Shown one piece after another: positions 51,807-52,403 of a stretch of 64,000 nt of DNA. This DNA is from an uncultured Bdellovibrionales bacterium (GTDB lineage Bacteria; Myxococcota; XYA12-FULL-58-9; CAYXVF01), in assembly GCA_964468125.1 (NCBI GenBank), contig CAYXVF010000020.1, positions 2,468 to 66,467 on the forward strand. Direction: 5' to 3'. Numbering within the stretch: position 1 is the stretch's first letter; each line of letters begins with the position of its first letter. Under the pieces are notes generated by a model. It worked only from the letters and a program-made list of their open reading frames with translations. It ran no database searches and had not been told where the DNA came from. The translations under genes and the position numbers were made by a program.

Positions 51807-52403
51807 ATGGCAAAGAGTGAACCCGGTCGGCTGATGACCACGCAGGAGGCGGCGAAGCTGCTGGGAGTCGGCCCATCGAGCGTCAAGCGCTGGGCCGATG
51901 ACGGGCGTTTGCCGTCGATCAAGACCCCCGGTGGCCATCGACGCTTTCGCGCGCGGGACGTTGAGTCGCTTCGTGAGCACCTGGCGCCAGGCTTCGCGTC
52001 GGAGAATACGGACGAGGAGCGCAACGCCGAGCTGCACTACCGCCTCCCCCACATGACCCGGGAAGAAATCGACGCGCTCGACATCGGCGTGATCGGGCTC
52101 GACGACAAAGGATACGTCAAACTCTATAATCGTGCGGAATCAGGCTTTGCCGGCATCCCTGTGTCCGAGGCGGAGGGCCAGCACTTCTTCGGAGAGCTGG
52201 CCCCGTGCACCAAGAATCGAATCATCTACGGCCGATTCAAAGAAGGCGTGCGGAACAACCAGCTCGATTTCCGCATACTTTATACGTTCACCTACCGCAT
52301 GCGCCCGACCAACGTCGAGCTGCACATGTATCGGGATCCGCAGAGCAAGACGAATTGGCTCCTCGTCGACCCCGGCGTCGCGCCAGCGAGTGCGGTCTCC
52401 TGA
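51807..52403 (+). CDS. MerR/excisionase-type HTH fused to a photoactive yellow protein (PYP) domain
   Basis: HTH: [42 protein letters not shown]: GVIGLD..G..KLYNRAE...GQHFF.ELAPCT....YGRFKEGV....[10 protein letters not shown]...H...W. Confidence 0.92.

Follow-up and report, generated by a model that had tools for sequence, protein, structure and literature searches.

Described photoactive yellow proteins and light-responsive regulators

Photoactive yellow proteins (PYPs) are blue-light sensors in which Cys69 is the site of the p-coumarate thioester, while Tyr42 and Glu46 hydrogen-bond the phenolate of the chromophore. Here we analyze a gene whose product joins such a domain to an N-terminal helix-turn-helix (HTH) domain, a protein called HTH-PYP below, together with an adjoining gene for a small acidic protein of two helices, called the hairpin or the partner. 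Both genes lie in a stretch of 64,000 nucleotides (the window, by which we mean the whole of the DNA that was analyzed) from an uncultured Bdellovibrionales bacterium assigned to the Myxococcota (GenBank assembly GCA_964468125.1, contig CAYXVF010000020.1, positions 2,468 to 66,467 of the forward strand). From sequence comparison and structure prediction we propose, with a probability of roughly 60%, that HTH-PYP, combining a winged HTH (wHTH) of the BldC/CarH type with a PYP domain, is a blue-light-responsive transcription regulator that works with the hairpin partner.

Multidomain PYPs have been described in several forms. Section 6 and Table 2 of a 2025 survey (PMC12826048) give Ppr (PYP-phytochrome-histidine kinase), Ppd (PYP-phytochrome-GGDEF/EAL), MCP-PYP, PYP-V4R, and REC-PYP, and the fusion partners named in that survey are PHY, HisKA/HATPase, HWE-HK, GGDEF/EAL, V4R, MCP, REC, and PAS. 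HTH-PYP resembles these proteins in having the PYP as the input module of a larger signaling protein and differs from them in that none of the partners listed there is a DNA-binding domain. In the main text of the same survey, none of HTH, helix-turn-helix, MerR, DNA-binding, or transcription factor appears as a term, and the main text of a 2022 survey (PMC9664959) mentions transcriptional regulators solely as neighboring genes and is likewise free of HTH, helix-turn-helix, MerR, and DNA-binding. As multidomain, the 2025 survey counts only proteins of more than 200 amino acids (aa), according to its text (PMC12826048); because the members of the HTH-PYP family are mostly shorter than 200 aa, most of them would be counted there as single-domain PYPs. 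Full-text literature searches returned no report of a natural PYP-HTH fusion, which the survey supplements (Data Sets S1 to S3 of PMC9664959 and the supplement of PMC12826048) might list. An earlier note on this DNA, made from the sequence alone, had suggested an architecture survey; the fusion is unmentioned in the main text of these two recent PYP surveys. The design is probably not yet described, comprising a new natural architecture and a previously unnamed partner family.

On the side of the DNA-binding domain, the closest light-responsive regulators are those that use B12. One of these, CarH, undergoes light-controlled tetramerization. The CarH/LitR/CtMerR class (PDB entries 5c8d and 8jbs, the latter being the B12 photoreceptor CtMerR; PMC11796333) has the same class of N-terminal wHTH, followed by a C-terminal photosensory module. 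HTH-PYP differs from this class in that its sensor is a PYP (p-coumarate, blue light) rather than an adenosylcobalamin-binding module; no Pfam B12-binding domain (PF02310/PF02607) matches it at E ≤ 1, and the CarH model NF052513 gives 12.6 bits against a cut-off of 400. Judged on these matches, HTH-PYP resembles the CarH/LitR class in its likely way of working and is not a member of it.

The best functional analogy is EL222, a one-component light-regulated transcription factor of the LOV-HTH type, which likewise unites a PAS-fold blue-light sensor and an HTH in one polypeptide. EL222 has a flavin/LOV sensor and a C-terminal, LuxR-type HTH, whereas HTH-PYP would use p-coumarate and a PYP and has an N-terminal, MerR-like HTH. 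The best matches of the HTH-PYP sensor are to PYP and not to LOV, and what we take to be the LOV Cys motif is missing from its translation. We know of no conserved helper protein of EL222. Such a pairing has its closest described parallel in Rc-PYP and PBP, the PYP-binding protein of Rhodobacter capsulatus (bioRxiv 10.1101/2021.06.01.446672), where a PYP also signals through a small acidic partner; the isoelectric point (pI) of PBP is 3.9, near the range of 4.2 to 5.0 of the hairpin. Compared by description rather than by sequence, the two partners differ in that PBP is a dimeric protein of 16 kDa, while the hairpin is a protein of about 6 kDa with two helices and an internal repeat.

A PYP sensor domain fused to an HTH domain

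The fusion of an HTH and a PYP domain that the earlier note had read in this gene is borne out by matches in Pfam, NCBIfam, PDB sequences, and Foldseek, and the profile models that it had singled out (TIGR02373 and HTH_17/MerR) all match, TIGR02373 with a score below its equivalog cut-off. The match to TIGR02373 (photo_yellow; E = 5.8e-27, 94.3 bits) covers residues 79 to 187 of the protein and positions 13 to 121 of the 124 in the profile. In a phmmer search of PDB sequences, 37 distinct sequences matched at E ≤ 0.01, of which 33 belong to PYPs, PYP-derived FAST tags, or the PYP domain of Ppr, with a best E of 2e-20, and four fall on the HTH, namely, BldC (twice), CtMerR, and RacA. Over residues 77 to 187 the protein aligns without a gap to residues 12 to 122 of Halorhodospira halophila PYP (offset 65, about 36% identity), a stretch even longer than the approximately 90 gap-free residues claimed before. 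The phmmer alignment also has in place all 20 of the residues that had been listed as kept, namely, G29, Y42, N43, E46, G51, G59, F62, F63, A67, P68, C69, T70, Y76, F79, Y94, F96, Y98, M100, H108, and W119. Two positions are changed, with Ala for T50 and Ile for R52. In section 5 of the 2025 survey, which covers 984 PYPs, the family consensus at positions 47, 50, 52, and 97 is Ser, Ala, Leu, and Thr (PMC12826048); HTH-PYP has Ser, Ala, Ile, and Thr.

An AlphaFold2 (AF2) model computed from the family alignment (mean pLDDT 86.4) shows the HTH with confidence, followed by a disordered linker (residues 60 to 68), helices within residues 69 to 89, and a PAS core. When this model was compared with the PDB by Foldseek, the 38 best matches listed (ranks 1 to 40) were without exception PYPs, PYP-derived FAST tags, or the PYP domain of Ppr. 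For the PYP crystal entries, the target-normalized TM score was 0.81 to 0.90 and the root mean square deviation (rmsd) 1.6 to 1.9 Å. The first generic PAS match was FixL (E = 1.8e-6, rmsd 18.8 Å). The earlier note had named, as an outcome that would speak against its reading, that some generic PAS family other than PYP would match best; neither the PDB sequences nor Foldseek gave this outcome. A match of this strength lies far outside chance expectation, and it singles out PYP among PAS domains. By its pocket and fold we therefore assign the sensor domain to the PYP superfamily, though it scores below the equivalog level. Relative to H. halophila PYP, the fold is predicted to be the same and the Y42/E46/C69 pocket is kept, while the HTH domain, the linker, and a longer helix stand in place of the first 11 or so residues of its N-terminal cap. 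Residues 77 to 89 align to PYP residues 12 to 24. HTH-PYP would further differ from the H. halophila protein in having a built-in DNA-binding output.

A small family with invariant pocket residues

In a word-indexed search, 62 of 5.8 billion proteins matched: the query itself, 25 full-length relatives, 10 proteins that share only the PYP, and 26 that share only the HTH. The full-length relatives are 163 to 227 aa long, mostly below 200 aa, and 48 to 83% identical to the query; where they have names, these are Myxococcota, Sandaracinaceae, “photoactive yellow protein,” and “helix-turn-helix domain-containing protein.” The alignment of the 26 full-length proteins has 36 invariant columns, and its only region that varies strongly in both length and sequence is the linker (alignment columns 68 to 105). 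Both domains are present and under purifying selection. Residues Y107, E111, A132, P133, and C134 of the pocket are invariant in all 26 proteins, and in genome and metagenome DNA the equivalents of Y42, E46, P68, and C69 are kept in all 27 distinct HTH-fused PYP domains. The 41 PYPs without an HTH from the same loci are variable, with Y42 in 20 and C69 in 36 of them.

A profile search of 1.84 billion cluster representatives, open to proteins of any length, found both domains in one stretch only in P0184, P0185, and the fragment P0220 among its best 150 matches, which held no longer form of the fusion. The family is small and compact. Twelve of 401 sampled Myxococcota genomes, from four families, carry the full-length fusion; these are the genome of the window, 2 of 6 in f7, 3 of 20 in f12, and all 6 in f18. 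A scan of genome contigs with peptide patterns of the HTH kept 80 loci, 78 of which share the HTH alone, with L012 and L013 being full length. In a quick maximum-likelihood tree of 68 PYP domains (110 columns), which is weakly resolved, the fused domains fall into one group of 27 fused and 3 unfused sequences (SH-aLRT 91), and the labels fused and unfused change twice on the tree, against a mean of 21 changes in shuffles. On this tree the HTH-PYP fusions form essentially one clade of PYPs, and the fusion may have had a single origin, with which the tree is compatible.

The two domains also occur separately in unusual repeat architectures. P0183 (1174 aa) contains four PYP-like stretches, and HTH_17-like stretches stand in tandem in P0187 (417 aa; seven) and P0192 (623 aa; eight).

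A BldC-like DNA-binding domain

The HTH passes the Pfam model HTH_17 (PF12728; 52.9 bits, cut-off 27), two further Pfam models, MerR (PF00376; 33.5 bits, cut-off 28.2) and MerR_1 (31.6 bits, cut-off 21.6), and the NCBIfam excisionase domain TIGR01764 (49.4 bits, cut-off 28.8); the narrower subfamily model HTH_BldC (NF033787) gives 63.8 bits, under its cut-off of 77. It aligns without gaps to four proteins of solved structure, namely, BldC (6amk, E = 5.6e-10; 6ama), CtMerR (8jbs, E = 2.8e-9), RacA, and CarH (5c8d, E = 6e-4). Residues K27, R28, W29, T40, G42, G43, H44, R45, and R46 are invariant in all 26 family proteins. In the account of BldC given in PMC5859096, Arg30 and Trp31 of the recognition helix touch DNA, and His46, Arg47, and Arg48 of the wing touch the AT-rich minor groove; these contact residues align exactly with the invariant R28-W29 and H44-R45-R46. 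On this alignment the domain has the BldC-type DNA-contact residues intact, and it is placed in the HTH_17/BldC-like wHTH class. The same source describes BldC as a monomeric MerR-like wHTH without a dimerization helix, which forms head-to-tail cooperative multimers on direct repeats. HTH-PYP, too, has no coiled-coil dimerization helix in the AF2 model, where the chain after residue 59 enters the disordered linker and then the PYP domain. BldC and HTH-PYP thus have in common a minimal MerR-like wHTH with the R-W and G-G-H-R-R residues, while BldC differs in being a stand-alone domain of 68 residues without a sensor (6ama, 6amk; PMC5859096). By analogy, the likeness suggests cooperative head-to-tail binding of HTH-PYP to AT-containing direct repeats.

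Of the 26 HTH-only relatives in the word-indexed search, 21 have B12-binding Pfam domains. The closest kin of this HTH are thus mostly B12 photoreceptor regulators of the CarH/CtMerR kind, which fits a light-regulated transcription factor. The relationship has the look of a sensor swap, with B12 and PYP modules exchanged on a common HTH output domain. The own genome of the window had seven B12-binding matches, none of them with a P0001-like HTH within 1.5 kb (E ≤ 0.01, with this query), so that no CarH-like paralogue was found there.

A second reading of the domain is that it is the excisionase or recombination-directionality module of a mobile element, with the PAS/PYP as an accessory and with no role in transcription. 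It draws on the pass of the “excisionase family DNA-binding” model of NCBIfam and on weak Pfam and NCBIfam matches to phage Cox and IS607-type HTH models. We nevertheless regard it as very improbable, since none of the six neighboring genes scanned, which are of housekeeping type, matches a mobile-element family in Pfam, the GC content is flat across the region, the HTH is closest to BldC and to B12-dependent regulators, and vertical conservation of the gene extends over four Myxococcota families, in which the partner is constant and the other neighbors are unrelated.

A conserved hairpin partner

When seven genes of the window were compared by tblastn with 12 related loci on 11 distinct contigs, the partner gene was the sole conserved neighbor, adjoining the HTH-PYP gene in all 11 distinct genome loci; all-against-all clustering of open reading frames (ORFs) points to the same gene. 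The MatE, FNR-like, VCA0040-like, PyrC-like, and MnmC genes and an ORF of 467 aa were not found near HTH-PYP in the other 11 loci. Strong matches to a partner profile (E ≤ 1.1e-26) occur in 11 of the 401 genomes, and all 11 have HTH-PYP; in the twelfth genome with HTH-PYP, G044, the contig ends inside the HTH-PYP gene, and no copy of the partner lies upstream. Over 28 loci the pair is arranged in four ways: the genes diverge in 11 and converge in 1, and where they share a strand the partner gene lies upstream in 13, in some cases abutting, and downstream in 3. Since the linkage has survived four arrangements, it points to a functional tie rather than to mere inheritance of gene order.

The conserved core of the partner is its last 50 aa, from an ATG at 51702-51700, and a public collection holds it as a protein of 50 aa (P0165) with the ATG at 51702. 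The alignment has 12 invariant columns, and the same short motif is present twice, 33 codons apart, in every copy. AF2 predicts two helices (residues 17 to 39 and 43 to 69; pLDDT 68). No Pfam or NCBIfam model matched the protein at E ≤ 0.01, and a search of the ESM Atlas gave a best score of 0.79 and no named family.

A metagenome scan with the partner alone gave 48 confirmed loci, not all of them independent (near-duplicates include L156/L157, L163/L164, L165/L166, and L193/L194). A PYP, an HTH, or both lie within 3 kb in 42 of these; in the remaining 6 the contig extends for less than 3 kb on one side of the partner gene (at most 1,549 bases downstream). The 42 loci comprise 17 with HTH and PYP, 3 with an HTH only, at a contig end, and 22 with a PYP and no HTH, some of which have two or three PYP genes in tandem. 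In other Myxococcota, proteins with four to seven copies of the motif are encoded directly upstream of stand-alone PYPs (L144, L146, and L147). The hairpin is also found fused to a PYP: P0263 (196 aa) has it at residues 10 to 59, aligned without gaps to the window's partner (42% identity, E = 4e-12), followed by a PYP with the Cys, and P0193, P0196, P0207, P0212, and P0199 have, by eye, a similar hairpin-PYP look. A profile search of a protein database found 325 relatives of the partner, more than there are HTH-PYPs, as expected if the partner family serves many PYPs. One other clade of Myxococcota PYPs had no partner within 1.5 kb in any of 13 loci (L108 to L121 minus the HTH-only L117), and the association of PYP and partner is therefore clade specific. 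Because of the PYP loci without an HTH, the multirepeat neighbors, and the hairpin-PYP fusions, we conclude from these gene neighborhoods that the partner belongs with the PYP rather than with the HTH or its promoter.

These observations bear on the description of HTH-PYP as a one-component regulator in the earlier note. The HTH-PYP architecture is real, and the description is probably incomplete, given a partner that is present in 11 of 11 loci and that also accompanies PYPs without an HTH and is fused to PYP. The description would be complete if the hairpin gene were a mere regulated target or operon passenger or if its product acted on the HTH as an acidic DNA-mimic antirepressor, of which CarS of Myxococcus is an example, leaving HTH-PYP to work on its own. 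The charges of the two proteins would suit an antirepressor, the hairpin being acidic (pI 4.2 to 5.0 in 12 of 12) and the HTH basic (median pI 9.9), and the divergent arrangement with a short shared control region in 11 of the 28 loci is typical of a regulator and the gene that it controls. We consider this alternative unlikely, as it does not account for PYPs without an HTH in 22 of the 42 linked loci, for the multirepeat versions beside stand-alone PYPs, or for the direct fusion of the hairpin to PYP. A prediction of the complex of HTH-PYP and the partner gave a score of 0.00 and a mark of 0.32, with no controls, and counts neither for nor against binding.

The stand-alone PYP loci have further features of their own. 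Two or three tandem PYPs lie downstream of one hairpin gene in L182, L186, L192, L193/L194, L162, and L174, and some of the tandem copies form their own long-branched clade on the 68-domain tree. In loci where a stand-alone PYP accompanies a hairpin or repeat protein, a third gene follows the PYP (L104 1681-2700, L144 359-790, and L147 2521-2958). Its products, of 143 to 339 aa, have a conserved stretch resembling ELRAEW..YN; they were not found near HTH-PYP, and two examples of about 143 aa had no Pfam match at E ≤ 0.001. In P0237 this third domain is fused N-terminally to a PYP. A size of about 16 kDa recalls the PYP-binding protein of R. capsulatus, a likeness of size alone. In genus g115, a gene for a soluble protein of the methyl-accepting chemotaxis type (L144 1881-2696, minus strand) lies directly upstream of the cluster of repeat protein, PYP, and third gene, which suggests a phototaxis-type output for that clade of PYPs.

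A proposed light switch and the evidence weighed

The photochemical steps of the mechanism that we propose for HTH-PYP and its partner are carried over from PYP (PMC12826048, section 5, with general background). Cys134 would carry p-coumarate, and Ala at position 50 would place the absorbance at roughly 435 to 465 nm, the range reported for PYPs with Ala50. Blue light would isomerize the Cys-bound p-coumarate, Glu46 would protonate the chromophore, and a signaling state would form with partial unfolding that includes the N-terminal cap. This state would loosen the cap helices (residues 69 to 89), to which the HTH is tethered through a flexible linker of variable length. As the linker is not conserved and the HTH class depends on cooperative multimerization, light would most plausibly be read out as a change in self-association or in association with the partner, rather than by rigid allostery through the linker. 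The change could take place among HTH-PYP molecules, between the PYP and the hairpin, or both, and would be nearer to the oligomerization of CarH. The hairpin would bind the PYP domain and take part in the switch; with its two repeats it could bridge two HTH-PYP molecules, or it could sit on the PYP sheet as a cap, much as a helix provided by another chain would. Its acidity could also allow it to cover the basic HTH, though the loci without an HTH argue for the PYP as its primary target. At a minimum, the promoter region of the pair itself would be regulated.

A more far-reaching form of this proposal, which we offer as a tentative possibility, is that the two genes make up a self-contained blue-light switch of transcription. 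The hairpin would then bind the PYP directly, in a manner that depends on the light state, and its family would be the first broadly conserved one of downstream PYP partners, turning, in HTH-PYP, the photocycle into the assembly or disassembly of HTH multimers on DNA.

Several observations weigh against HTH-PYP as a light-responsive regulator. Its TIGR02373 score of 94.3 bits lies under the equivalog cut-off of 143.05, a shortfall that accompanies the loss of the N-terminal profile positions 1 to 12 and divergence. The predicted TM score of the AF2 model is 0.63, so that the relative orientation of the domains is uncertain, and the linker, which ranges from about 0 to 40 residues among the relatives, argues against direct mechanical coupling. 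By eye, no operator motif common across families was found in the intergenic and upstream regions of the 28 loci, and the flanking genes (MatE, FNR-like reductase, VCA0040-like, dihydroorotase-like, and MnmC) have no link to photobiology. The supply of the chromophore is a further difficulty. For TIGR02372, the PYP-activating 4-coumarate-CoA ligase (pCL), the best match in the own genome of the window has 40.8 bits against a cut-off of 334.7, and none of the 11 other hosts has a match at E ≤ 1e-20, a weak null in that no control genome matched either. In 10 of these 11 hosts the only lyase has a Ser-His motif, which we take to be that of the histidine ammonia-lyase (HAL) type; none was found in the eleventh, G050, the genome of which is 59% complete. 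The own genome has generic AMP-binding ligases, one clear HutH, and one aromatic ammonia-lyase that falls below every specific NCBIfam cut-off.

The second lyase of the own genome (L011, on contig C198 of G000, 1399-2946, minus strand) has Tyr-His in place of the HutH-type Ser-His, scores 412 bits with the HAL model and 404 bits with the model of the BagA-type tyrosine ammonia-lyase (TAL), and adjoins an ORF of 362 aa (L011 280-1368, plus strand). It is possibly a source of p-coumarate or part of a secondary-metabolite cluster.

Some of these points would suit a different reading, under which the PYP-like domain is not a p-coumarate photoreceptor and instead responds to redox state or to a different small molecule, or carries some other cofactor linked through a thiol, making the protein a chemosensory transcription factor. 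The want of a dedicated pCL in the 12 host genomes, the HAL-type lyase as the only one in 10 of 11 other hosts, and the TIGR02373 score are all in line with it, and the text of PMC9664959 discusses possible redox sensing in some PYP variants. Those redox-type variants, as described there, carry Y42C and S50C, which are absent here; Y42, E46, P68, and C69 are strictly invariant with the rest of the pocket kept, and positions 47, 50, and 97 fit the consensus of the PYP family. TAL and pCL genes are, moreover, often not near pyp (PMC12826048, section 8; PMC9664959, section 7), most accepted PYPs being without them as neighbors, and other lyases or the uptake of p-coumarate may serve PYPs, according to these sections of the two surveys; the gap in chromophore supply therefore weakens rather than refutes the case for a photoreceptor. 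The DNA of the window is also present in sequencing runs labeled microbial mat metagenome (one study), a lit habitat; one of these runs may be its source. No RNA data set was listed for positions 51300-52600. We hence judge a chemosensor to be improbable and retain the blue-light-responsive regulator as the preferred reading.

The control region and the flanking genes

The features of the locus are collected in Table 1. The ATG of the HTH-PYP gene is supported by its closest relatives, P0002 and P0003, with which it has the N terminus up to the HTH in common.

Table 1. Coordinates of the HTH-PYP gene, its partner gene, and their parts in the window
Feature	Position	Strand	Description and basis
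Partner gene, small acidic two-helix protein	51550..51765	-	GTG ORF of 71 aa; divergent to HTH-PYP
Divergent intergenic region, candidate shared promoter and operator	51703..51806	.	104 bp; sequence between both genes
HTH-PYP gene	51807..52403	+	ATG start, 198 aa plus stop; ORF and translation
Winged HTH, residues 9-55	51831..51971	+	HTH_17/excisionase/BldC-like, MerR superfamily; Pfam and NCBIfam matches
Interdomain linker, residues 60-68	51984..52010	+	AF2 pLDDT <50 at residues 62-67
Two helices, residues 69-82 and 85-89, at the position of the PYP N-terminal cap	52011..52073	+	DSSP on the AF2 model
PYP-homologous region, residues 77-187 (H. halophila PYP 12-122)	52035..52367	+	Sequence and structure alignment
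Codons of Tyr107 (PYP Y42), Asn108 (N43), and Glu111 (E46)	52125..52139	+	Alignment to PYP
TGC codon of Cys134 (PYP Cys69 equivalent), chromophore thioester site	52206..52208	+	Alignment to PYP

The pair's own control region is the only regulatory target that the comparison supports, and it stands as a candidate. A promoter-like site for the partner gene runs on the minus strand from 51821 to 51793. Overlapping AT-rich palindromes at 51737-51754 were picked post hoc and serve as a lead only; the same holds for the hexamer CGAAAT, which has 21 copies in the window, three of them at 51738, 51777, and 51803, the last entering the ATG of HTH-PYP. Across loci, conserved blocks in the control region exist solely within groups of close relatives. 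One such group (L128, L129, L170, L172, and L183) has a promoter-like TTGGAAC...TATAAA block upstream of the partner gene, and another (L125, L126, L130, L180, and L195) has a GAAC-T5-GTTC block between the two genes. Apparent repeats in the L122 to L124 group were rejected as an operator, as they lie inside the coding start of the partner gene.

Among the flanking genes, the ORF of 467 aa (53778-55181, plus strand) has a basic C-terminal half rich in Pro, Ala, Ser, Thr, and Arg and no Pfam match, and its start overlaps the dihydroorotase-like gene on the opposite strand. A gene resembling TonB-dependent receptors (CarboxypepD_reg and Plug), which is absent from the window, adjoins the pair in three loci of different groups (L013 2844-5591, L127 6495-9158, and L131 6709-9597).

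Implications for PYP signaling

Although PYP has served for decades as a model photoreceptor, the abstract of the 2025 survey still calls its signaling output an important gap in knowledge (PMC12826048). Joined directly to a DNA-binding domain, the PYP of this family would give one clade of PYPs a readable output, and the hairpin is a concrete candidate for the way in which PYP domains, those that stand alone included, pass their signal on. The module is small, with 198 aa in HTH-PYP and about 50 aa in the partner, and its chromophore could be supplied by two enzymes, as the TAL and pCL genes of H. halophila do for PYP (PMC12826048, section 8). It is expected to absorb blue light, with a chromophore and a sensor fold distinct from those of LOV, BLUF, and B12 systems, and, if the proposed reading is true, it would offer a natural starting point for a compact optogenetic switch of transcription. 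For the family itself, the comparison suggests that in evolution a B12 sensor and a PYP sensor were swapped on one and the same HTH output domain.

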